DNA of 62,476 bases, filler included, from Candidatus Hydrogenedentota bacterium (GTDB lineage: Bacteria > JBFMHD01): NCBI GenBank assembly GCA_040752395.1. It is 5 parts of 5 records of this genome, joined end to end, with 100 filler letters (N's around TTAATTAATTAA, not from the genome) between each part and the next. Parts side by side here need not be neighbours in the genome. Positions count along the whole stretch, not along the records: positions 9,398 to 34,583 come from JBFMHD010000011.1; positions 34,684 to 43,895 come from JBFMHD010000110.1; 3 more parts are not named here. The stretch is one strand, 5' to 3'. Position 1 is the stretch's first letter. Each line of letters starts with the position of its first letter. Positions 9,441 through 43,895 of the stretch are shown one piece after another. The position numbers and the translations under genes were made by a program. Under the pieces are notes generated by a model. It worked only from the letters and a program-made list of their open reading frames with translations, did not search any database and had not been told where the DNA came from.

Positions 9441-9585
9441 CCTCCTCTGAAAAACATTGTAATTATAATGATATCAAGTAGAAGCAAGAAGCAAGATAAC
9501 GGAAGAAGTGAGAAGTATCAGGAGAGGCTACAGGCTACGGACTACAGCTGGCTGGAGCCAAAAGCCCGGAGTCTGAAGGCTGGAG
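9441..9585 (-). repeat. Modular SD-anchored repeat between hpf and ptsN
   Basis: CCTCCTCTGAAAAAC head, 28-bp core, AGCAAGA and GGCTACR modules. Confidence 0.9.
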
Positions 9586-10140
9586 TCAGTCAGCTTCAAT
9601 CAATCCAAAATTACCATCTCCCCTTTTATACATAACACTCATACCTTCTGTCTGTGCGTTGATAAATACGAGAAATTGCTGATTAGAATTCTGTAATTCA
9701 ATCATAGCGTCTTCAGGAAACATCGGTTTCAATGAATAATTATTATTTTTAATTATTCTTGTAGATTTAGATTCATCTTCTTCTTTAATATCTATTTCTC
9801 TTATTGGTTCTATTCTTTCTTCTTCTCCACGATGTTTAATCTTTTTTACCCTTTTATCTTTCATTTTTTCATTTTCTTTTTTCAATTTGTTTTCGATTAT
9901 ATCTACAAGTAAATCGATAGCCGAATACATACCGTCTGTTGAAATTTCTTTACAATAAATTTTAGTTATTCTGGTTTTTAAATGTGCTTCAGCAATATTA
10001 GACTGTTTTATTCTGCTCAGAGTTATAGTAGTATTAATTATCTGGGGTATGAATCTATCGAGTCTTGCAAACTTTTTTTCAATATAATTAGTTAATGATT
10101 TTGTAACCCGTAGATTTCTGCCTGTAATTTTAATATTCAT
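9586..10140 (-). CDS. hpf: Ribosome hibernation promoting factor (long HPF)
   Basis: MNIKITGRN, MYSAIDL, C-terminal LKPM..EDA...FLVF.NA...YKR.DGNFGLIE. Confidence 0.92.
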   Translation of the reverse strand: MNIKITGRNLRVTKSLTNYIEKKFARLDRFIPQIINTTITLSRIKQSNIAEAHLKTRITKIYCKEISTDGMYSAIDLLVDIIENKLKKENEKMKDKRVKKIKHRGEEERIEPIREIDIKEEDESKSTRIIKNNNYSLKPMFPEDAMIELQNSNQQFLVFINAQTEGMSVMYKRGDGNFGLIEAD

Positions 10141-10149
10141 GCATGATCA

Positions 10150-10262
10150 CTCCTCTGAAAGCAAGAAGCAAGATAACGGAAGAAGTGAGAGGTATCAGGA
10201 CAGGCTACAGGCTACGTACTACAGCCGGCTGGAGCAAAAAGCCCGGAGCCTGAAGCCCGAAG
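10150..10262 (-). repeat. Modular SD-anchored repeat between rpoN and hpf
   Basis: CTCCTCTGAAA head joined directly to the AGCAAGA module. Confidence 0.9.
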
Positions 10263-10276
10263 AGGCCGTGGTCTGC

Positions 10277-11695
10277 CTACTCATATACTTTACGTTTATG
10301 TGATGGTAGAATTTGTAGTTGTTCTCTATATTTTGTTACTGTGCGCCGCGCAAGATTAAATCCGTGTCGTTTTAAAATATTGACAATCTTCTGGTCTGAG
10401 AACGGATGTTTTACGCTTTCTCTTGCAATAATATCTTTTATCACAGCCTTTATAGATTTTGATGATGCATCAATACCTTCATCTGTATGGATACTGGATG
10501 AAAAAAAATATTTTAATAAAAAAACACCTTTTGTGGTCTGTACATACTTATTTGCAGTAACTCTGGAAACAGTTGATGGGTGCATTTCTATATCTTCAGC
10601 TATCTGTCTTAAAGTCAATGGTTTTAATGCCCTAACACCATCTACTAAAAAATCCTTTTGCATTTTAAAAATACTCTCAGTGACTTTATAAATAGTAGTA
10701 TTTCTCTGGTGAATAGTTTTTATAAGCCATAAAGAACGCCCAAGTTTTTCTTTAAGATAACCTTTTAATTCTTTTGAGATATTTTTTGATTTCAGCATAT
10801 TAACATATTTATTGTTTATATTTAAATTAGGAATCCACTCACTATTAACCATTACCATAAGTTCTCCATCAAGGATCTGAACACTCACATCTGGGATAAC
10901 GTAAGTAATTTCCTGTGATAGAAATTGTCTTCCCGGTCTTGGCTCAAGTTTCGAGATCTTATTTATAGCTTCTTTAAGAGCATCCATTCGTATTTTTAAC
11001 GCTGTAGCTATCCGAGGCAGCCTGTTTTTTTCGAGGTCTGAGAGGTGATTTTCAACTATCCGGTATGCCCAGGAATCAACCTCACCTATATTTTTCAATT
11101 GTATCAATAAACACTCTCGCAAATTAGAAGCTCCAACACCTACGGGCTCAAATGTTTTAATCAATTCATGTATCTCGATAAGTTTTTCTATCTTAACGCC
11201 TATGCTCTTTGCAAGAGGTTCGTAATCACCTCTGAAATAACCGTCATCATCAATAGCACTAATTATAGCCTCACCTGCTTTAAATTCTACCGGGTCATCT
11301 GTTGCTATTCTTAACTGCCACATTAAATGTTCGGATAAACTTTCACTTTTTGTTAAAGCCTGCTCGAAAAATACTATGTCTTTGTCCTCTCTTTCACTGC
11401 GAACGTATGTATCATTCCAGCCTGATGATTCAAAAATTCTCTCCCATTCTTGTTCAGGGTCACCAACCTCAGTTGCTATCTCATCCTGTTTTTTATCAGT
11501 TACGATTCTGTCTTCTTCAATAATTTCATCATCTATAACCGGGTTTTCTTCTAATTCGTCTTTTAGATAGTCCATCAGCTCCATAGAAGTCATCTGCAAT
11601 ATTTTTAAAGCCTGATGCATCAATGGTGTTATTACAAGCTGTTGCCTGAGATCAAGCCTCTGAATATTATCTAATTTTTGCATGCTTTTAGGCAT
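10277..11695 (-). CDS. rpoN: RNA polymerase sigma-54 factor
   Basis: Q-rich region I, HPSTVSR HTH, RpoN box ARRTVTKYRE. Confidence 0.96.
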   Translation of the reverse strand: MPKSMQKLDNIQRLDLRQQLVITPLMHQALKILQMTSMELMDYLKDELEENPVIDDEIIEEDRIVTDKKQDEIATEVGDPEQEWERIFESSGWNDTYVRSEREDKDIVFFEQALTKSESLSEHLMWQLRIATDDPVEFKAGEAIISAIDDDGYFRGDYEPLAKSIGVKIEKLIEIHELIKTFEPVGVGASNLRECLLIQLKNIGEVDSWAYRIVENHLSDLEKNRLPRIATALKIRMDALKEAINKISKLEPRPGRQFLSQEITYVIPDVSVQILDGELMVMVNSEWIPNLNINNKYVNMLKSKNISKELKGYLKEKLGRSLWLIKTIHQRNTTIYKVTESIFKMQKDFLVDGVRALKPLTLRQIAEDIEMHPSTVSRVTANKYVQTTKGVFLLKYFFSSSIHTDEGIDASSKSIKAVIKDIIARESVKHPFSDQKIVNILKRHGFNLARRTVTKYREQLQILPSHKRKVYE

Positions 11696-11716
11696 ATATA
11701 CCTCAAATCAAGGTAC

Positions 11717-14700
11717 TTATTCAACTTTTACGGTTTTTGCTTCAGCTTTCTTTTCTTCTTCTTTTTTCTTTTCTTCTAAAATTTTCTCCACTTCTTCTTT
11801 TCCCTCAAATTCAAAATCCACATCTCTGTATCCTCTAAACCCTGTACCGGCAGGTATAAGATGTCCTATGATAACGTTTTCTTTTAAGCCAAAAAGCTCA
11901 TCTTTTTTACCTTTAATAGCGGCCTCGGTTAAAGCCCAGGGTGTTTCCTGAAAACTGGCAGCACTTATAAAAGATTCAGAATGTTTGCTAACATTTGTTA
12001 TGCCTTTTAATAAAATCTCATATTTTGCCGGCTTTGCTTTTTTCTCTTTCTTTACTCGTTCATTCTCCTGTTTCAATACATAGCTATCCACTTCCTCTCC
12101 TTCAATAAATCTTGTATTTCCGGGATCAGTAATCCTTACTTTTCTCATCATCTGTTTAACAATAACCTCAATATGTTTATCATTAATATAAACACCTTGT
12201 TGTTTATAAACATCCTGAATTTCTTTTACGATGTATCTCTGTACAGCCATTTCACCCTGTACTTTTAACATAGTATGTAAATCTATTGGGCCATCAGTGA
12301 GTGGGTCGCCTGCTTCGACATAATCACCTTCATTAACAATCAATTGTTTCTCCATTGGAATTTTATATTCTCTGGTCTCATCAATTTCCTTGTTAACAAT
12401 TTTTATAGTTCGTTTGAGGCTAAAATCATCTGGTACTTCTACCTCACCTTCTATCTCAGTTACGATAGCTGGGTCAGTTTTTGGTTTTCTAACCTCAAAG
12501 AGCTCTTCAACTCGTGGTAACCCTGTTACTATATCCTGGGTTATGCCTCTCTGCCTGCCTGCGCCCTCTCCTCTGCGGCCAAATTTAAAAAAGTCAGAGA
12601 ACTGTTTTGTTAATAATTCGTTCTCTTCGACCCTTAATTTTTCTTTAGCTGTATTGATTAGTTTATGTTCGATAGTTTCGATTTCATCAAGTTTTGATAT
12701 ATTGGGAACATTATACTCGGAGTATTCAAAATCATATTTATGTTTTTTAATTGAATCCTTATCCTCAACTCTTTTTATATCAAGTTCCTGAAGTCTATTT
12801 TCTAAATCTTTATGTATTTTTTCATAATCTTTGAAAGTTGTAGGATTCATAACATTTGTCTTTGAGATAAGCTTTATAATGCTCTTTTTAATTTTTGAAA
12901 CCTTTTTTATGGTACCGGTTGTTGTTCCTGTATATCTTAGATATGGTAATGGGTACTTCTCCATATCTTCAACAATCCGAAGAATAGTTATTCTGTTATC
13001 ACCGCTCTTTGTTTTATAGGTTCTTATAAAATATGCTCTTCCCTTAATATCAGAGACCACGTTCTCACTGAGTTTTGTTCCGAGATCAACCTCTTCACCG
13101 TCTTTTATCTTTACTTCTCCTCGTAATAGAAAGTCTTTACCCTTCCAGACAATAATCGTTCCCTGCTCAGTTTCTCTGCCTTGCTGCACTTCGGGTCGAA
13201 TAACACTGTATTCGTTGTGTTCTTTCTGAAGTTGAACATTATATACTTCAATCATTCCATTTATTTTGGTGAAGATAGGTTTATAATTTGGATTTTCTCC
13301 AATAATTTGACTAATCTTAACATCGTTCCCTATCTTTATTCTTAATTCTGAGCCTATAAACATCATCGCTTCCACAAGTCTCTGTCTCTGAATAATACCC
13401 GAGATCGGTTCCTCACTCTCACTTATTAAAAGAATAACTCTTTTATCTTCTTTTTCTTCTATCTCAACTTTTGAACAAAAATTCGTTTTGAAGTCTCTGT
13501 AAGCTATAGTACTACCTTTATCGATCTCTTTACCAATCTCAATATTTTTCTCAAAGGTAATCGGTATTCTAAAAGCATAGTTCTGTCCTTTTGATTGTAT
13601 CAGTACAGTATCGAGATGGAACTGAGCTACTTTTCCATTATAGGGAGATATGTAATCTATCCTCACAACGGGTTTATCAATGTCAACTCTATCTCCATTT
13701 TTAACAAGTATCTTCACTTTCATATTACTATCAAGTCCTTGTTCATAGGTTCTTCCTTTTGAAGTCAAAAAATTTATCTGTTTATTATCAATAGTAATTC
13801 TACCAATTCTTTTACCGAGTATATAATCTTCTCCTACAACCGGTTCGCTACCATCCTTTTGTTTTTTTGTTACTGGCATTTTAGTAATTCTTCCATTAAA
13901 CAAGGCTCTGACAAAATTATCTTCAACACTTGCCACACCGCCGACGTGAAACGTACGCAAAGTTAATTGTGTACCCGGCTCGCCTATGGATTGGGCTGCT
14001 ATAATTCCTACAGCTTCACCTGCTTCAATCATTCTACCCGTACCTAAATCTCTACCATAACATTTTGAACATATACCTCTTGGTGATTCACAGGTTAAGA
14101 CAGACCTGGTTTTAATCTCTTCTACGCCAGCATTACTTATTTTTAGGGTTTTTTCCTCATCTATCAATTCACCTGCTTTAACTATCACTTCATTTGTTAT
14201 TATATCAATCACATCTTCAAGCGCAACCCTGCCCGCTATCTTATCAAAAAAAGACTCATCTTCAGTTTTTAAATCTCTGATAGATATTGTTAATCCTTTG
14301 AGTGTTCCACAATCTTCTTCTATTACAATAATATCTTGAGCGACGTCTACAAGTCTTCTTGTAAGATAGCCGGCATTTGCTGTTTTTAATGCGGTATCGG
14401 TTAATCCTTTTCTTGAGCCACTTGTTGATTGATAAAACTCATAGACAGATAAGCCTTCACGAAAATTTGAGATAATCGGGATCTCTTTTACCTTACCACT
14501 CGGATCAGCCATCAATCCTCTCATCCCTGCAAGCTGTTTTATCTGATCCTTACCACCTCGCGCGCCTGAGATAGCCATAATATAGATGGGATTAAACCCG
14601 CTATAGGAAATCTCCATTTCATCTAACATGAGTCTTGAGACCTCTTTAGTAGTATGTTCCCAGATGTTTACAAGCTTGTCATATCGTTCACCATCACTTA

Positions 14701-16639
14701 TTATCCCCTTTTTATATTGCTCATTGACTTTGAAAACCTCATCATTGGCTCTCCTGATTAAATCGTTCTTTAATTTTGGTACTAACATATCAGTTACACC
14801 AAGAGATATCCCTGATTTTGTTGAATAATAAAACCCTAAATCCTTTATCGCATCAGCAACCTTCACCGTCTCATCAGCGCCATATTCCAGAAATATGTCA
14901 TAAATAAGTTTATTTAAATCTGCTTTCCCAAATAATTTATTTTGAAAGCTATATCCTTGCGGTAAAATATTATTGAACACTATACGACCAACAGTAGTCT
15001 TTATTAATTTACCATCCAGTTTTACTGAGATAGGAGCATGGATTGAAATTATATCTTCGTCTAATGCTCTTAATGCTTCATTCTTACTTGCAAAAATTTT
15101 GTTAGTGCCTTTACTGCCTGTTTTTTCTTTGGTAAGATAATATATCCCAAGCACAATATCCTGGGTTGGTCCGATTATTGGTTTTCCATTGGCTGGAGAT
15201 AAAATGTTGTGTCTCGATAACATCAGGAGTTCTGCTTCCATTATGGCTTCTTTAGATAAGGGAACATGAACAGCCATCTGGTCACCATCAAAATCAGCAT
15301 TAAAAGCGACACAAACTAAAGGATGTAATCGTATAGCTTTACCTTCAATTAAAATCGGTTGAAATGATTGGATACCCAGTCTGTGAAGCGTAGGGGCTCT
15401 GTTTAAAAGTACCGGATGCTCTTTAATCACCTCATCAAGCGCATCCCACACCTCATCCTTCTCCTGGTCAATATATCTTTTAGCACTTTTTATATTACTC
15501 ACTATGTCTTTTGCAACCAGTCTATGCATAACAAAAGGTGTGAATAATTCAAGTGCCATCTTTTTAGGTAACCCACACGCAGAAAGCGGTAATTCGGGTC
15601 CAACAACTATAACAGATCGGCCTGAATAATCCACACGTTTACCCAGAAGGTTCTGCCTGAATCTACCCTGTTTACCTCTTAACATATCAGTTAATGATTT
15701 TAACGGCCTGTTAGCTGAACCAAGAACTTTCCTGCCTCTCCGACCATTGTCAAACAATGCATCAACTGCTTCCTGTAACATTCTCATCTCATTTCTTATA
15801 ATTATTTTCGGGGCCTTTAATTCCTTTAGCCGTTTTAATCTATTATTTCTGTTTATCACTCTTCGATACAAATCATTCAGATCAGACGTGGCAAATCTAC
15901 CACCATCAAGCTGTACCATAGGCCTTAAATCAGGTGGTATCACAGGAATAACATCAAGTACCATCCATTCGGGTTTATTCCCACTTTCAAGAAAAGCCTT
16001 TATAAGTGCAAGTCTTTTAGAAAGCGACGGTGCTTTTTGTTTAGAGGAGCTCTTTTCAATTTCATCTAAAAGTTCCTTCTTTTCTTTTTCTAAATCAATC
16101 TTTTTTAAAACCTCTTTAATACCCTCAGCACCGATACCAACAACAATATTATCACCCCATTCATTCTTCTTTTCTTCGTATTCCTCTATTGAAATCAAAG
16201 ATTTAACAGGTTTATCCGTAATTTGAGACTCAATAACAATATATTTTTCAAAATATACAACACGTTCAAGTTCTTTAGCAGGTATGTCAAGTAGTATGCC
16301 TATTCTTGATGTTGTACCTTTGAGATACCATATATGCGTAACCGGGGCGACAAGTTTAATATGTCCCATCCTTTCCCTTCGCACTTTGGAATGTGTTACC
16401 TCTACTCCGCAACGTTCACATCTTACACCTCTATATCTTATAGTTTTAAGACTGCCGCAGGAACATTCCCAGTCTTTTATACACCCGAAAATCTTTTCAC
16501 AAAATAATCCGTCCCTTTCAGGTTTAAGTGTTCTGTAATTAATTGTTTCTGGTTTTTTAACCTCGCCATTAGACCAGGTAATAATCTTTTCTGGCGAGGC
16601 AAGTTTTATACTGATAGCCGCTACATTTCTTGGCTCCAT
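11717..16639 (-). CDS. rpoC: RNA polymerase beta' subunit with a very large trigger-loop insertion
   Basis: [11 protein letters not shown], zinc finger, [13 protein letters not shown]; start at ATG 16639 after AGGAGG. Confidence 0.98.
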
Positions 16640-16646
16640 TTTTAAA

Positions 16647-16935
16647 CCTCCTCTGAAAAACTTTGTAACTATAATAATATCAAGTAGAAGCAAGAAGCAA
16701 GATAACGGAAGAAGTGAGAGGTATCAGGACGGGCTACAGGCTACGGAGTACAGCCGGCTGGAGCCAAAAGCCCGGAGCCTGCTGAAAAGTCTTGAGTCTT
16801 GAGTCTTGAGTCCTGTTTTGACTCACGACTTGCGACTTGTGACTCACGACTCTTTTTATATCATCTTTAGTTTTTCATGCTTTGTGTAGAGCGCAAAAAC
16901 CCAAAAACGCAATAACCCAATAACCCAAGAACCCA
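16647..16935 (-). repeat. Modular SD-anchored repeat upstream of rpoC
   Basis: Head, core, AGCAAGA, GGCTACR, GTCTTGA/GACTCAC hairpin and AACCCAAN modules. Confidence 0.9.
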
Positions 16936-17095
16936 AATCTACTTCCTCTTTTATAGCCATAGAAATTTTACCATAATATCTAAAAAACTCTCTATCCTCA
17001 AGACATGAACCAAATAAAAGCACCTTTTTTGTACCAAATTCTTTACTAGTCTCTATAATCTTAGCCAATTCATTTTCAAAAGTTTTCTTATTCAT
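16856..17095 (-). pseudogene. Degenerate MNT nucleotidyltransferase, internally deleted and fused to repeat
   Basis: KVLLFGSC present but DxD segment missing; C-terminus translated from repeat DNA. Confidence 0.6.
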
Positions 17096-17101
17096 TATTC
17101 A

Positions 17102-20100
17102 TTATCTCTTTCCTTTAATAACAGATTTTGCTTTACTTAAAACATCCTGTTGTTCTTCAACATTTTTTATGTCTATCTCATCGCCCTCCTCATTATAGAC
17201 CTGGATATCAAGTGCTAATCCCTGAAGCTCTCTAACAAGGACATTGAAACTTTCTGGTATACCTGGTGGAGATGCATTCTGACCCTTAACTAGAGCCTGA
17301 TATATATTTGCTCTGCCTGAGACATCATCGCTTTTTACAGTAAGCAACTCCTGTAAAGTATAAGAGGCGCCATAAGCTTCGAGCGCCCAGACCTCCATCT
17401 CACCCATTCTTTGACCACCGAACTGTGATTTCCCACCAAGCGGCTGTTGTGTCACAAGAGAATAAGGTCCTGTACTCCTGGCATGCATTTTATCATCAAT
17501 AAGATGATTGAGTTTCATTATATACATAATGCCAACAGTAACTTTATTTTCAAATGGTTCACCGGTTTTTCCATCATAAAGAATAACTTTGCCATCAGGC
17601 GGTAGACCCGCATTAGCCAGATGAAACCTTGTCTCGTTTTCAGTAGCTCCATTAAATGGCGGACAAGAAGCATAAAATTCTAATTTAGATGCGGCCCAAC
17701 CAAGATGTGTCTCAAATATCTGTCCTATGTTCATTCTTGAGGGAACACTTAAGGGATTCAAAACAACATCAACAGGTGTACCGTCTTCAAGATATGGCAT
17801 ATCCTCTACTGGTAATATTATAGAGATAACTCCTTTGTTTCCATGTCTACCCGCTATTTTGTCGCCAACTGATATTTTTTTCTTGGTTGCTAAAAATACT
17901 TTTACAAGCTCCTCTATGCCTGGCCCGAGTTCACCACCACCATCCTCTCTTGAGAATCTCTTAATGTCAATTACTATGCCACCTGAACCATGTGGTACCC
18001 TCAAACTCGTATCTTTAACATTCTTTGCTTTCTCTCCAAATATAGAATGTAACAATTTGAACTCAGGTGAAACATCACTCTCGCCCTTTGGCGTAACTTT
18101 ACCGACAAGGATGTCACCTGGTTTAACCCGTGTCCCTAATTTAACAATACCATCCTCATTCAGGGCCTCTAAAGCCTGTTCACTTATACCCGGGATATCT
18201 TTTGTTATGTTTTCTCGGCCAAGCTTGGTATCCCTTACTTCGATCTCAAATTTCTCAATATGTACCGAGGTATAAACATCATCCCTTACCAGTCTCTCAC
18301 TTAAAACAATAGCATCTTCAAAATTGAAGCCATGCCATGGCATAAATGCTACAAAAACATCTCGTCCAAGCGCTAATTCACCGTGTGACGTACCCGGGCC
18401 ATCAGCTATAGGCTCACCCTTCTCAACCTTCTCACCGTCAATAACTATGGGTTTATAATTAATAGCAGTGTTCTGATTAGATCGTTTAAACTTAGGAAGC
18501 TCATATCTATGATCGAATCCATTTTTATCCCTGATTATTATCTCATCAGCACTGGTCTTAACAACTGTTCCACTTTCACTCGCAACAATAACAGCACCGG
18601 AATCTATGGCAATTTTTCTTTCTATACCCGTACCTACAATTGCTGGTTCACATTTAAGTAGAGGTACTGCCTGTCTCTGCATATTTGAACCCATCAATGC
18701 TCTATTCGCATCATCATGTTCAAGAAATGGTATCAAGGCAGTAGAAACACTGACTATCTGTTTAGGTGACAGATCTATGAAATCTACTTCTTCAGGTAAA
18801 ACATAAATATATTCTTCGCCTGACTCACCATATCTAACAAGTATTTTATCCTCAACAAATTTACCCTGTGAATCCACCTCTGTTGTGGCCTGAGCTATCT
18901 TATACCCGTCTTCTTCAGCAGCATTTAAATAAACCACCTCATTTGTCACTTTTCCATTTATTACTCTTCTATATGGTGTTTCTAAAAAACCGTAATTATT
19001 AGGTTTTGCATACGTTGAAAGCGATACAATTAACCCAATGTTTGGGCCTTCAGGCGTTTCTATGGGGCAAATCCTGCCATAATGTGTCCGATGAACATCT
19101 CGGACATCGAACATAGCTCTTTCCCGCTGAAGCCCACCTGGCCCTAAAGCTGAAAGTCTTCTTTTATGGGTTAGCGCAGCTAATGGATTTGTTTGATCCA
19201 TAAATTGTGATAATTGACTCGTACCGAAAAATTCCCTTAATGCTGCAGTAATTGGCTTGATATTAATCAGACTCTGTGGTGTGGCTGTATCCTGATCCAG
19301 AATACTCAATTTATCTCTAACTGACCTCTCCATCTTCATAAATGCTGTTCTTAGATGACTTTGCAATAACTCACCAACGCTCCGTATCCGTCGATTGCCA
19401 AGATGGTCTGTATCATCAGATTTTCCTTGTGTCTGTTCTAGTTTGAATAACATTTTTATAACTTCTATTACATCTTCTTTGGTCAATAGTCTGTCACTCT
19501 CTCTTTCATTGGTTATCCCGAGCCGCTTGTTCAGTTTATATCGTCCAACAGTTCCAAGGTCATAATATTTTGGATCTTTAAATCTTCTGTTAAACTCTGT
19601 CCGTACAATATCATCAGGTCCTAAATCACCAGGTCTAAATACTTCAAATACAACTCGTAATGCCTCCATTACTGACATTGAGGTATCCCGTAATAAGGTC
19701 TCTAATACAGGTTTATACTCATCACCACCTAAAAAAATGTGTAGTTTTGTAATACTACGTTTCTGTAAATCTTCAAGTATCTCACCTGTTATGGGTGCCA
19801 ATCTCAACTTTTCAATATACACTATCTCTTCTTTATTTTCTTCGTTTTTTGCTTTTTGTAGCAATGTTACAAGCTCATCATTTAAAATTAATCTCTTTCC
19901 CATAATCTGCTGTGAAATTAAAGGGTCTATTTCATGTCCTTGTTGTGGAAGCTCATATTCCTGAATCGGGCAAAAACATTTCAATACATCTACATCTGAA
20001 TCAAAACCCCAGGTTCTTAAAAAAGTAAACGCAGATATCTTCTTTTTTTTATCAAGTTTGACATAAAGAGCACCGCTTACGTCAAACTCAAATTCCACCC

Positions 20101-20656
20101 ATGATCCACGATACGGGTTTACTCTTGCTGAATATAATTTTCTGCCCTGTGGATGACGTTTTCCATCGTCATCATCAAAATTTAAACCGGGTGAGCGGTG
20201 TAATTGTGATACGATAACACGCTCAGCACCATTAACTATAAACGTTGCATCCTTTGTCATTAAAGGTATATCACCAAAATAAACCTCCTGCTCTTTAATC
20301 TCGCCTGTTCGCTTGTTTATAAGTCTTATCCTGACTTTAAGAGGCGCAGAATAAGTAGTATCTCTATCCCGTGCTTCCTGTTCACTGAATTTAGGTTCAC
20401 CAAGAATATAATACATAAACTCAAGAACAATCCCCTCTTCTTCCTCCTCTTCAGTCTTTCTTGCTTTAGAATAATCTATAGGAAAAATTTCATTGAATAA
20501 TTCCTGTAAACCATAATTCTTTCTTTCGTCGGGATCAACGTTTCTCTGAAGAAACCATTCATAAGATTCAATCTGCATTTCTATGAGAAAAGGTGGTTCA
20601 TATTGTTCAGGAATTTTTGAAAAAGATATACGGTCTATCTTGTTTAGTTTGCCCAT
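17102..20656 (-). CDS. rpoB: RNA polymerase beta subunit
   Basis: [38 protein letters not shown]. Confidence 0.98.
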
Positions 20657-20663
20657 ATAATTA

Positions 20664-20914
20664 CTCCTCTGAAAAACTTCGCAACTCTAATAATTCGGGG
20701 TACAGGCTACAGGCTACGGACTACAGCCGGCTGGAGCCCCCTATGAAAAGTCTTGAGTCTTGAGTCCTGTTTTGACTCACGACTTGCGACTCACGACTCT
20801 TTTCATATCATCTTTAGTTTTTCATACTTTGTGCCTTTATGCCTTCCACTCCTGTCTTCTGTCTTCTGGCTCCTGTCTCCTATCTGCCTTTGTGCCTTTG
20901 TGCCTCTTGCTTCT
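20664..20914 (-). repeat. Modular SD-anchored repeat upstream of rpoB
   Basis: Head, core variant, GGCTACR, ATGAAAAG..CTTTTCAT hairpin, TYCTGTC and CTTTGTGC modules. Confidence 0.9.
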
Positions 20915-21000
20915 ATAATAATATATTATTAAAAACATAATATTGGATCAAGCCAAATTCCAAATCCCTAATAATTGTCTTTAAAATTTTAACGACCTTA

Positions 21001-21384
21001 TTATTTAATTTCAACAGTAGCACCTACTGCTTCGAGTTTGGTCTTTATCTCCTCAGCCTTTTCTTTTGAGACCTTTGAAACTATTACCGCGGGAATATTA
21101 TCAACAAGCGTTTTTGATTCTTTTAAATCCTTGTTAATAATGGTTTTCACTTCCTTTACAACCTGAATCTTTTTATCGCCAACAGCAGTCATAATAACAT
21201 CAAACTCGGTCTTTTCTTCTTTAACAGCTTGCGCTGATGAATCGGCTTGGGCGACCTGCGCTACTGTAACAGGCGCTTGAGCAGATACCCCAAGCTCTTT
21301 CTCAAGTTCTTTTACTAATTCTGAAATTTCAAGAATAGTAGCACTTTTAATAAAATTTTTAACTTCTTCTTTTGTTATAGCCAT
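21001..21384 (-). CDS. rplL: 50S ribosomal protein L7/L12
   Basis: EEKTEFDV, KIQVVKEV, GATVEIK. Confidence 0.96.
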   Translation of the reverse strand: MAITKEEVKNFIKSATILEISELVKELEKELGVSAQAPVTVAQVAQADSSAQAVKEEKTEFDVIMTAVGDKKIQVVKEVKTIINKDLKESKTLVDNIPAVIVSKVSKEKAEEIKTKLEAVGATVEIK

Positions 21385-21388
21385 AAGT

Positions 21389-21690
21389 CCTCCTATAAAA
21401 AGAAGCAAGAAGCAAGAAGCAAGATAACGGAAGAAGTGAGAGGTGTCAGGACGGGGTACAGGCTATAGGCTACGGACTACAGCCGGCTGGAGCCCGAAGC
21501 CCGGAGCCTGCTGAAAAGTCTTGAGTCCTGTTTTGACTCACGACTTGCGACTTGTGACTCTTTTCATATCATCTTTAGTTTTTCATACGTTGTGCCTTTA
21601 TGCCTTCCCCTCCTGTCTTCTGTCTTCTGGCTCCTGTCTCCTATCTGCCTTTGTGCCTTTGTGCCTCTTGCTTCTTTCGTTATCTTGCAG
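21389..21690 (-). repeat. Longest modular repeat, between rplJ and rplL, with inverted outer arms
   Basis: GCAAGATAACG near the start and CGTTATCTTGC at the end, enclosing the other modules. Confidence 0.9.
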
Positions 21691-21697
21691 CTACATA

Positions 21698-22207
21698 TCA
21701 TCTTCTCTGAATTGCATTTAAAAGAGATAATAGATTTCTTACAGACGCTGTTAGAACATTGACTAATCCCTGAGCGGGCCAACTTAATAAATATAAAAGC
21801 CTGAGTATAAGTTCCTCTCTGCCTGGCAACCTGGCAATTTGTTCAACGCCGTCTCTTTCTACAATCAAACCTTCTATAATACCGCCCTTGATCTTGAGCT
21901 TAGGTACCCTTTTAGAAAACTCATAAACAAGTTTTGCTGTCATTACAGGGTCCTCCTGACTATAAGCAATCCCAACTGGCCCTTTTAAGAATTTTTCATA
22001 ATCTTTTAAGCCGAGGTTAGAAATAGCTATTTTTGCTAATCTATTCTTTATAATCCTGAAGTTAACCCTGTTTAATCTTATTTCTTTTCTTAATTGATAC
22101 ATTTCAGAAACAGTTAATCCTTGATTTTCTGCAAAAACTATTGATTTAGCATCCTTTATTTCATCTTTTAACCATCTTACAAATTCTTCTTTCTCTTTTC
22201 TTAACAT
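21698..22207 (-). CDS. rplJ: 50S ribosomal protein L10
   Basis: GLTV.EM..LR, IKNRLA.IA, LPGREEL. Confidence 0.95.
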   Translation of the reverse strand: MLRKEKEEFVRWLKDEIKDAKSIVFAENQGLTVSEMYQLRKEIRLNRVNFRIIKNRLAKIAISNLGLKDYEKFLKGPVGIAYSQEDPVMTAKLVYEFSKRVPKLKIKGGIIEGLIVERDGVEQIARLPGREELILRLLYLLSWPAQGLVNVLTASVRNLLSLLNAIQRR

Positions 22208-22224
22208 GAACCTGGTTCCCTCTT

Positions 22225-22265
22225 TCCTTGCTTTTTTCGTTATCTCTCTTTATCTTGCTTCTATC
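22225..22265. repeat. Short remnant of the repeat family between rplA and rplJ
   Basis: CTTGCTT..TTCGTTATCT..TATCTTGCTTC. Confidence 0.55.
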
Positions 22266-22268
22266 CTA

Positions 22269-22970
22269 TTAGGCTACCTTCTTTAATTCAGAGACTTTTA
22301 TTTTTACAGCCGGCCCCATAGTTGAACATAATGTAATACTTTTAATATAAGCACCTTTTACAGTCGCGGGTTTCATTCTTAATACTGTTTCTAAAGTCGT
22401 AATAAGATTGTCTTGTAATTTATCTTCAGTAAATGAAGCTTTACCTATTGGTAAATGGATATTCGAAAATTTGTCAACATTTATCTCTATTTTACCAGCT
22501 TTAAACTCTTTTACAGCTTCTTTAATTTCAAAAGTAACTGTGCCTGTTTTAGGATTTGGCATAAGTCCTCGAGGTCCTAAAATCTTCCCAAGTTTTCCTA
22601 CTTCTTTCATCATATCAGGCGGGGCTATCGCAACATCAAAATCAGTCCAGCCCTCTTTCATTATCTTTTCAATCAAATCCTCAGCCCCTACATAATCAGC
22701 ACCTGATTCTTTTGCTTCTTTCTCCTTTTCGCCTTTAGCAAAAACAATTACTCTTATCTTTTTCCCTATACCATGCGGTAATGAAACAGTCCCTCTGATT
22801 TTTTGTTCTGATTTAGTTGGGTCAAGATTCATATTCATTGCCAATTCAATGGTTTCATCAAATTTTGCTGTTGCCAAACTTTTTGTCAGTTTTAGCGCTT
22901 CCTCTATCTCATACTCTTTGTCTTTTTTATATTTTGTAATTAATTCCCTGTATCGTTTTCCTCGCTTCAT
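22269..22970 (-). CDS. rplA: 50S ribosomal protein L1
   Basis: AKFDETIE, LGPRGLMPNPKTGTVT, STMGP. Confidence 0.97.
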   Translation of the reverse strand: MKRGKRYRELITKYKKDKEYEIEEALKLTKSLATAKFDETIELAMNMNLDPTKSEQKIRGTVSLPHGIGKKIRVIVFAKGEKEKEAKESGADYVGAEDLIEKIMKEGWTDFDVAIAPPDMMKEVGKLGKILGPRGLMPNPKTGTVTFEIKEAVKEFKAGKIEINVDKFSNIHLPIGKASFTEDKLQDNLITTLETVLRMKPATVKGAYIKSITLCSTMGPAVKIKVSELKKVA

Positions 22971-23179
22971 TGCTATCACCTCTTATCTACCTATAACAGT
23001 TTGTATTCATGAAGCACAGCACTAATTTTTCCTACCGCAGCTATCGTCCTTGCTTTGCCTATACAACTATTTAAGTTACTAACCAATCCTGTGTCTATAA
23101 AAATTAGTGTTTGGTTTGCGTGAGTGCTGTAAGACACGAACCTTTTATGCTGTGTTATATGAAATTGTACCATAACTTT

Positions 23180-23683
23180 TCACACTTTCCTTAGACTTTC
23201 AAATAATTTTTTTAGCAAGAGAGCAGTCAAAACTGTTTTTTCTAATTTGCAAACGGTTCTATACATTTTTGCTGAGTCTTTTATCCATACAACACCATCA
23301 AGAACAGCTATTCTTATAGCATTCCCTTTTTTTCCTATACTTGTTGCTTTAGGCTCTTCAATAGATTCAATTATTGCCTTAAATCCTAAAGAGCGAACTC
23401 TACCAACTATTCTAATGACGGTTTTGGGATTATACTTAACAAACATTTCATTCTTTCGTAGAAATGCTACATAGTGGTCATCAATTGGGAATTTAGGCAA
23501 CTTCAACAAATTTTTAATCAATAAAATATTATCGCCTGATTTATAAACTTCTTCCAATTCTTTCTTTATCTCAATAGGAACAGCTCGCCATGTTTCTTCT
23601 GTTGTTGAATAAATATTATGAAGGTTATCTAAATAGCCAGGCGAATTGGCTATTTGAATACTTTTTCTTACCCATTCGTTCAT
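23180..23683 (-). pseudogene. Tsp45I-like type II restriction endonuclease with apparent in-frame internal deletion
   Basis: W...SI..AN...YLD.L, FPI.D.Y.A.L, NP.T..RI, EPK and LDGV.W motifs; only 167 aa with the central catalytic segment apparently absent. Confidence 0.6.
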
Positions 23684-24834: not shown

Positions 24835-24892
24835 CTTATTTCCTCTGTCTTCAATCCAAGATATAGCAGAATTTCAGATAACTGATGAATTA

Positions 24893-25321
24893 CTAAACCT
24901 CTACCTCGACTCCCATGCTTTTTGCGGTTCCTGCAATCATACTTGCGGCTTTTTCAATATCAAAAGCATTCAAGTCTTTCATCTTCTGCTCTGCAATCTC
25001 ATATAAATCCTTTTTACTAATTTTCCCTACCTTTGTTCTATTAGGTTCTCCTGATCCTTTCTCAATTTTAAGTTTCTGTCTGATTAAAACAGCAGCGGGC
25101 GGTGTTTTTAACTCAAAAGTAAATGATTTATCTTTATATACTGTTATAATTACAGGTATCACTGTCTCTCCTTTATCTTTTGTTGCTTCATTAAAAGCTT
25201 TACAGAACTGCATTATATTTATGCCCTTCTGACCTAACGCCGGGCCGATAGGTGGTGCTGGTGTTGCTTTTGCCGCAGGTATTTGCAATTTTATATAGCT
25301 GTCAATATCTTTAGATACCAT
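24893..25321 (-). CDS. rplK: 50S ribosomal protein L11
   Basis: [20 protein letters not shown]. Confidence 0.97.
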
Positions 25322-25326
25322 AAATA

Positions 25327-25570
25327 CTCCTCTGAAAAACGCTGTAACTCTAATAATTCGGGGTACAGGCTACGGGCTACGGACTACAGCCGGCTGGAGC
25401 CTCCTCCTCTGAAAAACATTGTAACTCTAATAATATCAAATAGAAGCAAGAGGCAAGAAGCAAGATAACGGAAGAAGTGAGAGGTATCAGGACGGGCTAC
25501 AGGCGTAGGCTGCTGAAAAGTCTTGAGTCCTGTTTTGACTTATGACTCGCGACTTGTGGTCCACGACTGA
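25327..25570 (-). repeat. Double (tandem) modular repeat between nusG and rplK
   Basis: Two CTCCTCTGAAAAAC heads at 25327 and 25404, each followed by a 28-bp core. Confidence 0.9.
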
Positions 25571-25572
25571 TT

Positions 25573-26109: not shown

Positions 26110-26135
26110 CTTAACACCTTCTTTCGTAACCTTCC

Positions 26136-26363: not shown

Positions 26364-26551
26364 TCTGTGCTCCAGTTGTCGCTATGCTCCATTGTGTACT
26401 CTTTTTCACCAGTTCGGTAGAAAAATTTGCCTGTTTAAAGGTAATCCTTCAATCCTTCGGTTATAGGTGGCAGCAAGAAGCAAGAGGCAAGATAAAAAAA
26501 CCAACCAAAGACTTGAAAGGATACGGTTCAAATCCCTTAACTTTTACTTTA

Positions 26552-27104: not shown

Positions 27105-27264
27105 GAGGTCTCTTTTAAAACCTCATTTTTTAAAGACAGCTCTAAAGTCTAAAGAACGGGTCTTGTGACCCTCTTTACATTATATTGATTATATTGAAAA
27201 TACAAAAAATAAAAGATGTAGTGAGCATCTTTAGATGCGACAAACTAAGTTTAAAAGAGACATC
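27105..27264. mobile_element. MITE-like element, copy 2
   Basis: TIR GAGGTCTCTTTTAAAAC / GTTTAAAAGAGACATC; interior homologous to 6441-6589. Confidence 0.65.
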
Positions 27265-29861: not shown

Positions 29862-29943
29862 CTCCTCTGAAAAACTTCGCAACCCTAATAATTTGGGCTA
29901 CAGGCTACAGCCAACTGGAGCCTGGAACCCAAAGCTCAAAGCC
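29862..29943 (-). repeat. Short modular SD-anchored repeat upstream of ftsA
   Basis: CTCCTCTGAAAAAC head, core variant, GGCTACA module. Confidence 0.85.
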
Positions 29944-30112
29944 AACATATCATCTACATTTTGCTTCTACATATCATCTCTTTCTTATAAGTTTACATAA
30001 TTAATCATTTTTCAAAAATCTTGTAAAGAAATTTTTTTCTTTTTTTACCCCCACCAATTAATATAGTAGTGAGGGGTTTCAGCTTCGATTGAGGGCACCT
30101 TTAGGGTGCTTA

Positions 30113-31843: not shown

Positions 31844-31979
31844 CTCCCTCGAAAAAAGTAAGAAGTAAGAAGTGGGAAGTGAGAAGTATCGGGACGGGCT
31901 ACGGGCTACGGCCGGCTGGAGCCTGAGTCCCGTAGAATGTAGTCTGCAATCTGAAGCCTGTAGTCTGTATCCTGAAGCC
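31844..31979 (-). repeat. Modular SD-anchored repeat upstream of ddl (AGTRRGA heptamer variant)
   Basis: CTCCCTCGAAAAA head; AGTAAGA/AGTGGGA/AGTGAGA; GGCTACG; GCCGGCTGGAGCC. Confidence 0.85.
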
Positions 31980-32001
31980 AACTTATCATTTTATGCTTCC
32001 T

Positions 32002-34501: not shown

Positions 34502-34535
34502 TTTATCCTCTATCTTGCTTCTTTCGTTATCTTAA

Positions 34536-34583: not shown

Positions 34584-34683
34584 NNNNNNNNNNNNNNNNN
34601 NNNNNNNNNNNNNNNNNNNNNNNNNNNTTAATTAATTAANNNNNNNNNNNNNNNNNNNNNNNNNNNNNNNNNNNNNNNNNNNN
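34584..34683. other. Assembly gap with artificial linker
   Basis: N-run with TTAATTAATTAA. Confidence 0.98.
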
Positions 34684-34931
34684 AACTCTAATAATATCAA
34701 GTAGAAGCAAGAGGCAAGATAACGGAAGAAGTGAGAGGTATCAGGACAGGCTACAGGCTACGGACTACAGCCGGCTGGAGCCAAAAGCCAAAAGCCTGCT
34801 GAAAAGTCTTGAGTCTTGAGTCTCGAGTCTCGAGTCCTGTTTTGACTCACGACTCACGACTCTTTTCATATCATCTTTAGTTTTTCATCCTTTTGGCCTT
34901 TGTGCCTTTCTCTTCTGTCTCCTGTCTTCTG
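34684..34931 (-). repeat. Modular repeat downstream of ruvX, cut by gap
   Basis: Partial core, then the same module order as 16647 and 21389. Confidence 0.9.
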
Positions 34932-40268: not shown

Positions 40269-40663
40269 CAAAATTTTTCCTTCAAACTCTTCTTTATAAG
40301 AGCAATCAACTTTCTGACATCCCAAAGGTTATCTTCGATCTCTTTTAAAGTTATCTCTATATCGCTAAAAGGGTATTTTTCTTCAAAATAATATCCTGTC
40401 AATAGTATTGCTAAATCCTGAAATTTCTCAAATCGATTATCATATTTTACTGACTCATCTAATAATTTTTTCAGATTGTGTGTTTTAACCAATCTCCAAC
40501 CTTTACTGAGTAAATAACCCTTTAAATATTTTTCTGTTGCTTGCTGCAATAATACCGCGGCTGTATCCGATTGTCCTTTATGTTTTATAATTAGTTTCAC
40601 GGTGGCAAGATCATGTTCAGCTTTTACAAACCACTCTTTCGCTTTTATTTTATTGTTCTGCAT
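40268..40663 (-). CDS. HEPN domain protein
   Basis: WF.KAEHDL, QQA.EKYLKG, KTHNL. Confidence 0.88.
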   Translation of the reverse strand: MQNNKIKAKEWFVKAEHDLATVKLIIKHKGQSDTAAVLLQQATEKYLKGYLLSKGWRLVKTHNLKKLLDESVKYDNRFEKFQDLAILLTGYYFEEKYPFSDIEITLKEIEDNLWDVRKLIALIKKSLKEKF

Positions 40664-40982
40664 ATAAAACTTTTCCCTTTTCCAATATCTCTTTTACAAA
40701 ATCATCTCCGATTTTTAACCTTTTATTAAGTTCATTTTTTGTAAATACTACTGGCTGAATAGCGATACCTTTAATATCACTTACTATCTTCATCACCTCA
40801 CAAAACCGCTCTATCCTCCTTTTATTTGTTTCTTTAATAATAAAGAGGTCAATATCACTCTCTTCTGTTGGATTACCATAAGCATAAGAGCCAAAGAGAA
40901 TAATCTTCTTTGGTCGGTACTTCTGTCGTATTTTTTTTACCAACCTCTGTATTATTAATTCGGTCTCTCTATTATTTGTCAT
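40650..40982 (-). CDS. Minimal nucleotidyltransferase (MNT)
   Basis: ILFGSYAYG.P...SDIDL, EI...GKVLY. Confidence 0.9.
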   Translation of the reverse strand: MTNNRETELIIQRLVKKIRQKYRPKKIILFGSYAYGNPTEESDIDLFIIKETNKRRIERFCEVMKIVSDIKGIAIQPVVFTKNELNKRLKIGDDFVKEILEKGKVLYAEQ

Positions 40983-40988
40983 ATATCA

Positions 40989-42014: not shown

Positions 42015-42650
42015 TTAAAAACATATTAGTTTATACTCTCTTTCAAGATAATGTCTGTAAATATCATAAGCACCATACCCTTTCATCATTTTATCTATAG
42101 GATTCTTGAGGTAATCTTTATCTTTGCCTAAATTATTAAGAGCCTCTAAAAATCTTGTATAGGTTTTTGATGATTTTTCAAAACTCCGGCCCTGCCTTGA
42201 ATAAAAATATTCTTTGGCTGCTATCTTTGCTAAATCAGCTTTTTTATCCCAATCAAGGTTCTCTATAAACTCATCAATACTTACAGCTCTATGTTTTTCT
42301 TCTAACCGTTTCGTTATTCTTGCGAGGTCATTGGTTGTTATCATTAATCTCTCAGCTAAAGTTTTAGCTAATTTTATTGCGATCTCTGGTCTCTGTTTAA
42401 TAGTAGTTTCGAATTTCTTAGGCGTGATAAAAATTATCTCTGAATCAGATATTGTAACACATGTCGCACTTCTCGGTTTATCCAATAAATACGACATCTC
42501 ACCAATAAATGAACCCTCTTCCACAATAAACCCTATATGTTTCCCTCCCTTCATTACCTCAACCCCGCCTTTCTTTAATAAAAGTATGTCTCTCCCTGTA
42601 TCACCTTCTCTAAATAAAATACTTCCTTTGGGATATTTCTTAATCTCCAT
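42015..42650 (-). CDS. Cyclic nucleotide-binding domain protein
   Basis: LFREGD, GEMS.L...PRSAT. Confidence 0.8.
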   Translation of the reverse strand: MEIKKYPKGSILFREGDTGRDILLLKKGGVEVMKGGKHIGFIVEEGSFIGEMSYLLDKPRSATCVTISDSEIIFITPKKFETTIKQRPEIAIKLAKTLAERLMITTNDLARITKRLEEKHRAVSIDEFIENLDWDKKADLAKIAAKEYFYSRQGRSFEKSSKTYTRFLEALNNLGKDKDYLKNPIDKMMKGYGAYDIYRHYLEREYKLICF

Positions 42651-42658
42651 TCTTTTTT

Positions 42659-42822
42659 CCCTCGAAAAAGTTCGGAGTTCGGAGCTCGAAGCTCGGATCT
42701 ATTATTACGAACTCCTAACTTCTAACTCCGAACTCCTATCTTTTTCATCCTTTGTGCCTTTGTGCCTCTGTGCCTACTCTGAAAAGTAAGAAGTGGGAAG
42801 TGAGAAGTATCATAACTCCTAT
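42659..42822 (-). repeat. Modular SD-anchored repeat with GTTCGGA/AACTCCN hairpin variant
   Basis: CCCTCGAAAAAG(TTCGGAG)n..(AACTCCT)n CTTTTTCAT, CTTTGTGC x3, second CTCTGAAAAG head. Confidence 0.85.
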
Positions 42823-42825
42823 CTA

Positions 42826-43710
42826 CTATCTCCTAACTCCTTTTCTACAATACTTCTTGATTAGCAATTTCACCTGGTTATATTTTTTCGCAGGGAATAG
42901 TTTCTGACCCGTCATTATAGCATTTTGTAAAGCTTTTGAACATTCGCAGGTTCTTTCTTTGTCAATGGGTATATATTTCACCACATCCTTTATAACCTTT
43001 TTTACATTATCAACATTAGAAAGCAAATTAGCTATCACACGTTCAACAGAAACTTCCTCGCCCTCTTTCCAGACATCATAATCAGTTGCCAGAGCTATTG
43101 TTGCAAAACAAATCTCAGCTTCACGCGCAAGTTTTGCCTCTGGCAAATTAGTCATCCCTATAACATCAACTCCCCATGACCTGTAAATACGTGATTCTGC
43201 TTTAGTTGAGAACGATGGTCCATCTATACAAACATAGGTTCCGTTATAATGAGTTGTGATGTTGTTTTCTTTACATACTTTATATAATATCTCTCTCAAT
43301 TCTTTACAATATGGCTGGGCAAACCCTATGTGAACAACAATCCCATCGCCAAAAAATGTCGATATCCTTGACTTTGTTCTATCAAAGAGCTGGTCGGGTA
43401 TAACAAAATCCCTTGGTTTTATCTCTTCTTTCATACTTCCAACCGCTGATACCGATATAATCCATTCAACGCCGAGCTTTTTTAATACCCAGATATTTGC
43501 TCTTGAATTTACCTCGGCCGGTAAAATTCTATGTCCGCGTCCGTGTCTTGGTAAAAATGCAACCCTCCTATCATTTAATGTCCCTATCATAATACTATCA
43601 GAGGGATTCCCGAACGGTGTCTTTATTTTCTTCTCTGTTACATCTTTTATACCCTCTATCTCATATAACCCACTACCACCAATTACTCCGATAAGTCTCT
43701 CGTTAGCCAT
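42826..43710 (-). CDS. mtnP: S-methyl-5'-thioadenosine phosphorylase
   Basis: IGGSGLY, TPFG.PS, PRHG.GH, GMTNLPEAKLAREAE, TDYD.W. Confidence 0.95.
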   Translation of the reverse strand: MANERLIGVIGGSGLYEIEGIKDVTEKKIKTPFGNPSDSIMIGTLNDRRVAFLPRHGRGHRILPAEVNSRANIWVLKKLGVEWIISVSAVGSMKEEIKPRDFVIPDQLFDRTKSRISTFFGDGIVVHIGFAQPYCKELREILYKVCKENNITTHYNGTYVCIDGPSFSTKAESRIYRSWGVDVIGMTNLPEAKLAREAEICFATIALATDYDVWKEGEEVSVERVIANLLSNVDNVKKVIKDVVKYIPIDKERTCECSKALQNAIMTGQKLFPAKKYNQVKLLIKKYCRKGVRR

Positions 43711-43716
43711 CACAGA

Positions 43717-43895
43717 CCCCCTTTGAAAAAGTAAGAAGTATCAAAAAATAGAAGCAAGAAGCAAGATAACGGAAAAGAAAGATAACGAAAGAAGCAAGAG
43801 GTAAGAAGCAAGATAACGGAAGAAGTGAGAGGTGTCAGGACAGGCTACAGGCTACGGACTACAGCCGGCTGGAGCCAAAAGCCCAGAGCCTGCTG
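43717..43895 (-). repeat. Modular SD-anchored repeat upstream of mtnP, cut by gap
   Basis: CCCCTTTGAAAAAG head, repeated GATAACG modules as in 1-196. Confidence 0.9.

Follow-up and report, generated by a model that had tools for sequence, protein, structure and literature searches.

The intergenic spacers of a 62,476-nt stretch of DNA from Candidatus Hydrogenedentota bacterium (assembly GCA_040752395.1; hereafter, the window), which consists of five contigs joined by linkers of the form N44-TTAATTAATTAA-N44 at 9298-9397, 34584-34683, 43896-43995 and 53197-53296, harbor a family of repeats whose conserved 3' end is the Shine-Dalgarno sequence (SD) of the gene that follows. Our preferred interpretation, to which we assign a probability of about one half, is that these repeats form a lineage-specific, mosaic intergenic family that is read through in operon mRNAs and that carries the ribosome-binding site (RBS) of the downstream gene. 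In particular, the sequence features described below support the proposal that the repeat would supply a uniform and strong translation-initiation region, preceded by hairpins and by a pyrimidine-rich tract.

A family of modular repeats in gene spacers

A self-BLAST of the window returned 22 repeated regions, 16 of which belonged to this family, all of them intergenic (1-196, 9252-9297, 9440-9578, 10159-10255, 16647-16886, 20657-20914, 21399-21686, 25320-25558, 29862-29910, 31863-31924, 34513-34533, 34684-34931, 42747-42811, 43749-43895, 48181-48208 and 53036-53076); the remaining six rows corresponded to two unrelated repeats. An earlier note on this DNA had listed about 15 related intergenic elements, and all 13 positions named there were recovered, 12 of them by self-BLAST, module mapping and motif searches, and the one at 42659 by eye, alignment and hairpin. 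Altogether, the family represented 2,627 of the 62,076 non-linker bases and, according to our own gene table, was found in 18 of the 34 spacers of at least 30 nt and made up 29% of spacer bases. Tight operon spacers were filled from the stop codon to the SD, as in the hpf-ptsN (146 of 152 nt) and rpoN-hpf (124 of 136 nt) spacers, and 7 of the 11 junctions between nusG and ptsN contained family sequence (manual count), in line with the statement that most junctions of this gene run carry an element. The arrangement is not that of a CRISPR array, since the copies are situated hundreds to thousands of nucleotides apart in separate gene spacers.

Eight modules, a to h, were mapped back onto the window; they were taken from the two fullest copies, a-g from 21401-21688 (before rplL) and h from 16647-16685 (before rpoC). 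The reference modules in the rplL copy are the following:

21665-21688 (-), module a
21645-21664 (-), module b
21610-21644 (-), module c
21556-21609 (-), module d
21507-21555 (-), module e
21455-21506 (-), module f
21401-21454 (-), module g

The modules followed one common order, a-b-c-d-e-f-g-h, of which each locus displayed its own subset, which bears out the claim of ordered, shared modules; the exceptions were c-b in place of b-c at 34684-34931 and two composite copies. Internal modules were absent from some copies (g from three, f from one and most of h from four), the 5'-most module could be a, b, c, d, e or f, and the body of h was missing where hpf, rplL, ddl and mtnP are preceded by a short end. 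Module g is a pyrimidine-rich tract, while h consists of an A/U-rich stretch with the end UUUUUC-AGAGGAG. Module a corresponds to part of g in inverted orientation (25 nt, 88%, in the rplL copy), and the rule of a single orientation therefore has exceptions at rplL, rplJ and murG. With regard to identity between copies, the adjacent rpoB and rplL copies shared 159 nt at 97%, and f was 95-97% identical in other copy pairs located on different contigs; no effect of neighboring position on f identity was observed.

The conserved 3' end includes the Shine-Dalgarno sequence

The end motif, TTTTCAGAGGAG, occurred seven times exactly and 10 times with at most one mismatch, compared to an expectation of 0.53 (sd 0.70), and none of 100 shuffles reached 10. 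Variants were found at 31844, 43718, 4344, 21389 and 42659, and 14 ends were counted in total. All 14 lay on the strand of the next gene; this part of the claim that the elements flip with the local genes stood, while the flip itself depends on a small number of + strand cases (1-196, 1715-1733, 4344-4355 and 9252-9297). Eleven ends were positioned 4-12 nt before credible starts, those of the alcohol dehydrogenase gene, ptsN, hpf, rpoC, rpoB, rplL, rplK, ftsA, ddl, the cNMP-domain gene and mtnP. Two further ends were internal to composite copies, one intact and directly followed by f (25404) and the other decayed to GAGTAG and followed by b (42774). The last one (185-196) precedes ATG 206, which had been listed among the gene starts in the earlier note and turned out to head a frameshifted gene fragment. 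Since these three ends keep the motif away from gene starts, the 3' end forms a terminus that is intrinsic to the copied unit, beyond what selection at gene starts would maintain.

Alignment of the ends revealed that similarity between copies stops directly after GAGGAG(G) and that the spacers to the start codon all differ, which places the boundary of the element at the SD, as had been proposed. In unrelated genes, the 12-39 nt upstream of the SD remain near-identical, whereas the spacers from SD to start do not; the SD accordingly belongs to the repeat and travels with it. This assignment also follows from the distribution of the motif, which was not equally common at repeat-free genes: only the alcohol dehydrogenase gene had the end motif without any other module, and other genes use different SD contexts. 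Furthermore, the 11 element-fed genes paired more strongly with the anti-SD string than did 25 other genes, with median duplex energies of -8.7 and -6.0 kcal/mol, respectively (p = 0.00024, one-sided Mann-Whitney test); for this string, a general consensus stood in for the 16S sequence of this organism.

Tandem heptamers and hairpins within the modules

All modules are composed of tandem units of 7 or 8 nt. In the output of Tandem Repeats Finder, 38 of 43 period-7 rows fell within family regions (manual count), and octamer arrays such as GGCACAAA were also present in the family. Inverted arrays of 7-nt units, pairing in blocks of 4-5 bp, make up modules e and f and also the hairpin, spelled differently, that precedes the cNMP-domain gene. 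Both e and f form imperfect hairpins, and that of f was kept in 12 aligned copies, with a G+C-rich core palindrome, CAGCCGGCTG, and adjacent GTAG motifs; there are three such motifs, the first of them inside the stem, and they recur every 7 nt. The TTTTC that stands before the SD, in e and in the cNMP copy, is the 3' foot of a hairpin and pairs with an upstream GAAAAG. A promoter and terminator scan did not detect a canonical intrinsic terminator in e or f.

The copies and fragments recognized in the window are as follows:

1..196 (+), e(tail)-f-g-g'-g''-h, a copy truncated at the window start; end motif at 185-196
1715..1733 (+), g-like heptamer fragment with CTTGC-type units, about 95 nt upstream of an fdrA-like gene
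4344..4355 (+), the end motif TTTTCAAAGGAG by itself, with no other module, located 12 nt ahead of the start of the alcohol dehydrogenase gene at 4368
9252..9297 (+), array of b-type octamers, AGGCACAA (x5.4), that reaches the contig end
9441..9585 (-), copy f-g-h occupying the whole hpf-to-ptsN spacer; SD 7 nt before ATG 9433
10150..10273 (-), copy f-g with the short end CTTTCAGAGGAG in the rpoN-to-hpf spacer; SD 9 nt before ATG 10140
16647..16937 (-), octamer array followed by d(part)-e-f-g-h, before rpoC (ATG 16639)
20664..20914 (-), copy b-c-d-e-f-h' without g, before rpoB (ATG 20656); b-e 97% identical to the neighboring copy
21389..21688 (-), the most complete copy, a-b-c-d-e-f-g with the end TTTTATAGGAGG, before rplL (ATG 21384)
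22227..22262 (-), a-like (inverted-g) fragment in the rplA-to-rplJ spacer
25327..25560 (-), composite e-g-h directly followed by f-h', before rplK (ATG 25321), with an inner end motif (25404-25415)
26472..26495 (-), fragment with g-like heptamers on the downstream side of the tRNA gene (26552-26624)
29862..29945 (-), f'-h' in diverged form, preceding ftsA (TTG 29853)
31844..31980 (-), arrays of heptamers, followed by f, by a second subtype of g (g2) and by the end TTTTCGAGGGAG, preceding ddl (ATG 31835)
34513..34533 (-), a (inverted-g) fragment, 12 nt before murG (ATG 34501)
34684..34931 (-), c-b-d-e-f-g-h, a copy truncated within h at the contig end
42659..42825 (-), composite of heptamer arrays and g2 with the decayed inner end TTTTCAGAGTAG (42774), followed by b, d', a hairpin of different heptamers (34-nt arms, 82%) and the closing end TTTTCGAGGGAA, before the cNMP-domain gene (ATG 42650)
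43717..43895 (-), copy f-g-g'-g'' with the end TTTTCAAAGGGG, cut by the contig end, before mtnP (GTG 43713 or ATG 43710)
48174..48230 (-), g-like heptamer and hexamer arrays upstream of a large surface-protein gene
53036..53076 (-), solitary f hairpin directly after the upstream stop codon, 128 nt before the next start and without an end motif

As a separate observation, module d (21556-21609, with copies at 16848-16878, 20795-20847 and 34858-34888, all on the - strand) contains the conserved ATGAAAAACTAA, a three-codon mini-open reading frame (ORF), and TGAAAAAC of the same module is the exact complement of GTTTTTCA, which stands directly before the SD in h.

A proposed portable ribosome-binding site and the evidence for and against it

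According to the interpretation that we favor, a copy set against a gene would replace the translation-initiation region of that gene with a uniform and strong one. The copies would almost certainly be transcribed with their operons, because they occupy tight operon spacers all the way from stop codon to SD, and transcription would be expected to read through the upstream hairpins, since these have no canonical terminator; ribosomes would then use the SD of the element. Copies may spread and reshuffle by copy-and-paste between spacers, probably through a replacement, at the SD and at short repeats, that resembles gene conversion or is driven by microhomology, and selection would retain those that leave essential genes translated, without participation of a classical transposon with inverted ends. 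Several findings point to conversion, namely the shuffled modules, the missing internal modules, the 159 nt shared at 97% by adjacent copies and the absence of transposon ends. If the SD is truly delivered by the repeat, the translation-initiation regions of core genes would be overwritten and made uniform by repeat dynamics, which would bear on the tolerance of operons to invasion and would offer a natural design for an "insulated RBS".

A number of results weigh against this interpretation. The fixed 3' end, the variable 5' extent and the ends located away from gene starts also fit a true mobile element, as do the truncated genes beside two copies, and the findings that favor conversion are indirect. 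Nearly all copies belong to one long run of genes on the - strand, so that orientation with transcription is indistinguishable from orientation with replication. Read-through, processing and use of the SD are predictions made from the DNA sequence, and the predicted accessibility of the SD and of the start region was no better in element-fed genes (p = 0.32 and 0.66, respectively). Covariation in the f hairpin was slight, with a compensatory change in 2 of 12 pairs. Similarly, when whole elements were folded, only the copy with the a:g inverted repeat was significant (z = -4.5 in sense and -4.3 in antisense), and values for the rpoC copy were -1.7 and -1.2; because the former folds equally on both strands and the latter is not significant, folding provides no strand-specific RNA signal.

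A possible mobile element that would rescue its target genes

Of the alternatives, the most likely one, although we find it doubtful, is that the copies are non-autonomous mobile elements that depend in trans on an enzyme from another part of the genome, either a single-strand HUH/Y1 transposase (RAYT or IS200/IS605 kind) or a reverse transcriptase. The defined 3' end of such an element would land at or just after ribosome-binding sites, and its own SD would rescue the downstream gene. An element of this type would account for a 3' end that is discrete, identical and kept without a following start codon (25404 and 42774), and that stays constant although a copy may begin with a, b, c, d, e or f. 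The absence of inverted ends and of target duplication, subterminal hairpins and strand polarity are hallmarks of IS200/IS605 elements, and the family, in which polarity is strict, displays the same combination. Regarding these features, terminal inverted repeats of the type found in MITEs were seen in one of the four copies scanned (rplJ-rplL, a:g, 25 nt, 88%), the others having internal hairpins only, and no direct repeat bracketed any copy when the flanks were read, the 3' flanks all differing and the 5' flanks being stop codons or unrelated DNA. Furthermore, the GTAG motifs beside the palindrome of f resemble those of GTAG-type REPs (PMC3733652), and the fragment of a group II intron at 62258-62398 (an Rfam match of the whole window at gathering score) suggests that a reverse transcriptase may exist in the genome.

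The joining of copies to gene remnants can also be read in this way. Directly after the copy that ends at 185-196, and thus joined to a gene interior, the region 197-413 (+) encodes a C-terminal fragment of about 55 residues of an aldehyde-oxidoreductase-type molybdoenzyme (coding 206-370), with one frameshift near 265; it aligned in two frames to PDB chain 1dgj_A (residues 853-872, E = 0.34 alone, and 874-905, E = 0.00076), and the rest of the gene was absent from the window. Between rpoB and the rpoC copy, at 16862-17095 (-), a 78-codon ORF was found that represents a weak remnant of a nucleotidyltransferase N-terminus. Its BLASTP match, to the nucleotidyltransferase antitoxin of the window at 40650-40982, comprises only 13 residues around LFGS, and it may be what is left of a toxin-antitoxin pair. 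A Pfam search with the 201-413 fragment and with the rpoB-rpoC remnant gave nothing significant. The junction with the molybdoenzyme fragment, however, could be an assembly chimera.

Other observations are less easily reconciled with mobility. No transposase, recombinase or reverse transcriptase was detected among the window ORFs scanned (36 and 25 ORFs in two scans), no common target motif was recognized in the bases adjoining the 3' end in the alignment of ends, and simple truncation at the 5' side is insufficient to explain the loss of internal modules described above. Among the relatives of RpoB, 80 loci were retrieved, none above 65% identity and none serving for a comparison of junctions. 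RpoN (10277-11695, -) had a best non-self match of 48% identity among 5.8 billion proteins, and in five genomes behind the retrieved loci its identity did not exceed 34% across most of its length, while a single C-terminal segment reached 44%. Because the best RpoN match is only 48% identical, the organism has no close sequenced relative and its lineage is isolated. As a side observation on this gene, rpoN-hpf-ptsN directly follow rpoC.

A more specific proposal, which we consider rather doubtful, is that of a self-propagating, non-coding RBS cassette with a fixed 3' end, copied in a polar fashion, either by single-strand transposition of the HUH type or by reverse transcription with 3'-constant and 5'-variable copies, and integrating at or beside SDs, where it would substitute its own translation-initiation region for that of the gene. 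If true, such a cassette could colonize essential operons (rplKAJL-rpoBC, the dcw cluster) without killing the host.

Regulatory, promoter and assembly-based alternatives

It is unlikely, in our view, that the copies primarily represent a shared regulatory leader, in which the g-h tract and the heptamer arrays would be a platform for a factor of the S1, cold-shock-protein or CsrA type, so that one factor would co-regulate the translation or stability of many genes. This idea is compatible with either mode of spread and is attractive in view of the near-identical leaders of 31-39 nt before unrelated genes and of the pyrimidine- and U-rich tract directly upstream of the SD. Precedents for 7-nt units exist as well: CspB is reported to bind heptamer repeats with one protein per unit, and the same was proposed for the TAACTGA repeats (PMC4679880); heptamer repeats near start codons altered reporter output in Nostoc (bioRxiv 10.1101/2022.06.06.494920). 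On the other hand, no theme unites the genes served, namely those for ribosomal proteins, RNA polymerase and cell division, mtnP, and the genes for an alcohol dehydrogenase and for a cNMP-domain protein, module content varies from gene to gene, and nothing in the window points to a binding factor.

A portable promoter is improbable. Here, h would carry a -10 box (TAGAGT, TATAGT or TATAAT) and a new transcript would begin about 25 nt before the start codon; indeed, a TAnnnT hexamer is located 21 nt before the SD in all eight copies with an h body. However, a sigma-70 scan of 9400-26700 predicted no site in h, promoter-like sites were not more frequent than in shuffles (63 versus 53.5, sd 6.7), the alignment contained neither a -35-like hexamer at 16-18 nt in either h context nor a TG extension, and hpf, rplL, ddl and mtnP are preceded by short ends in which the h body is completely absent.

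Finally, an artefact of amplification or assembly, with chimeric joins or collapsed repeats, is very improbable: although five of the eight internal contig ends are in or next to family sequence and a chimera could explain how the gene fragment came to be joined at 197-206, 13 copies lie inside contigs with their own substitutions, unit numbers and unique flanks in intact conserved operons, and contig breaks at dispersed repeats are what a real repeat family is expected to produce. The position of these contig ends therefore indicates that the repeat family breaks the assembly.

Comparison with known intergenic repeats

Intergenic repeats made of short units, such as STRR and TAACTGA, were recognized as early as 1990, with neither a function nor a means of spread attached to them. 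The family described here is a member of this known and unexplained class, within which it stands out by the fixed order of its modules and by terminating in the SD of essential genes; together with its strict polarity, these properties make it an unusually clear case. Judged from sequence anatomy, the cyanobacterial heptamer repeats and the TAACTGA repeats of Beggiatoaceae are closest. The latter are direct repeats of a heptamer within a few nucleotides of start codons in the genome of a marine member of Beggiatoaceae and are also found in some Cyanobacteria and Bacteroidetes (MacGregor 2015, PMC4679880). Both STRR and TAACTGA resemble our family in that tandem 7-nt units are confined to spacers, mostly point to the next start and lie within a few nucleotides of it, in that they precede essential genes such as those for ribosomal proteins, in that contigs break there, and in that no mover is known. 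Differences are also apparent. The last module of our family has a strong SD, whereas genes fed by TAACTGA are mostly without one (PMC4679880). In addition, the arrays are here built into a fixed order of eight modules common to the loci, and their units are others (GAGTCGT, GACTCAA, GTAGCCT, CTTGCTT and GGCACAAA). Tandem TAACTGA was absent from the window, in which 16 single copies were counted over the two strands.

With regard to architecture, as compared through the published description, BOX is the closest system (PMC3049150). In Streptococcus pneumoniae and S. suis, BOX is a composite of boxA, n x boxB and boxC in set permutations (Croucher 2011, PMC3049150). It is thus similar to our family in its composite sub-sequences and variable unit number, and BOX is transcribed with neighboring genes; unlike our family, it has terminal inverted repeats similar to those of an insertion sequence and is enriched between convergent genes, and it is not reported to end in an SD at a fixed distance from starts (PMC3049150). 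In comparison with the BOX layout, the 3' end is fixed and the order conserved in our family, while the 5' module varies and no single middle unit is iterated.

Module f may be likened to REP and BIME sequences, including GTAG-tagged REPs (Di Nocera 2013, PMC3733652), being a palindromic unit with adjacent GTAG motifs that forms mosaics with other motifs as in BIMEs, and one f hairpin stands by itself directly downstream of a stop codon (53036-53076). Unlike such REPs and BIMEs, f occurs in a single orientation in 12 of 12 aligned copies, on the strand of the next gene and without head-to-head or tail-to-tail dimers, and its GTAG motifs lie in part within the stem and recur at intervals of 7 nt. 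DNA similarity to E. coli amounted to two spurious matches in 5426 genomes.

Two further classes share the location of the family. The mycobacterial interspersed repetitive units (MIRU), reportedly described by Supply et al. in 1997, are said to occupy spacers within operons, oriented with transcription and touching the flanking stop and start, and their defining feature is reportedly a set of small ORFs that overlap both flanking genes. Our family is alike in its intra-operon spacers, its orientation with transcription and its contact with the flanking stop and start, but no small ORF spans its spacers, since every frame contains at least one stop in nine of nine spacers and the phase relative to the start varies. 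MITEs are small, non-coding, dispersed and intergenic, and some of them bring promoters or other signals to neighboring genes. The family is likewise small, non-coding, dispersed and intergenic; unlike MITEs, it has neither terminal inverted repeats, apart from the one a:g pair, nor a target-site duplication, and it has a variable 5' extent and strict polarity.

Database searches did not provide a relative either. At gathering score, Rfam recognized only the tRNA and the group II intron domain in the whole window, and at E <= 1 no match fell within elements in 20600-26700. Comparison with plasmids gave three low-complexity matches of 26-39 nt and that with phages none. An exact 22-mer of module g was found zero times among the genome-contig matches listed. 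The same 22-mer matched one metagenome contig in a G+C-rich coding region with no other module, which we attribute to chance. In the literature, no description of a repeat family ending in an SD was found.

Gene context and additional repeats in the window

The window has a G+C content of about 35%. On the - strand, a first block comprises murG-murC-ddl-ftsQ-ftsA-ftsZ and then the tRNA gene, and this is followed by nusG, rplK, a methylase with a Tsp45I-like nuclease, rplA, rplJ, rplL, rpoB, rpoC, rpoN, hpf and a putative ptsN, of which only 12 codons are visible before the contig end. The domain content of the remaining genes was assigned with Pfam.

Several features of these genes deserve mention. 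The DNA methylase (N6_N4_Mtase) and the short ORF for a Tsp45I-like restriction enzyme are inserted at 23180-24834 (-), between rplK and rplA in a conserved ribosomal-protein operon; the nuclease ORF has 167 aa and matched only the first 113 of 260 profile positions. The rpoC gene (11717-16639, -) has about 1640 codons, and since its product aligns end to end with the 1147-position beta' model, it contains about 450-500 extra residues, apparently late in the protein. Three tandem paralogous genes for CsgG-like lipoproteins, with small ORFs between them, are located at 50729-52908 (-), and 43996-48120 (-) encodes a very large surface-type protein with Ig-like and lamin-tail domains, which has about 44% G+C versus 35% in the genome and runs off the contig end.

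The two unrelated repeats detected by self-BLAST differ in their location relative to genes. One of them, of about 115 nt, is present on opposite strands at 6464-6578 and 27117-27240 with 80-94% identity, downstream of genes and with a terminator-like hairpin, CCCTGTTTTTAAAAAACAGGGTTTTT, at its end. The other is a direct repeat (60323-60470 and 61545-61657, 96% over 113 nt) that contains the hairpin GCAAAACCTGATTCAGGTTTTGC and is situated upstream of a ParE-toxin gene and of an ORF with a DnaJ domain, with the group II intron domain lying after it.

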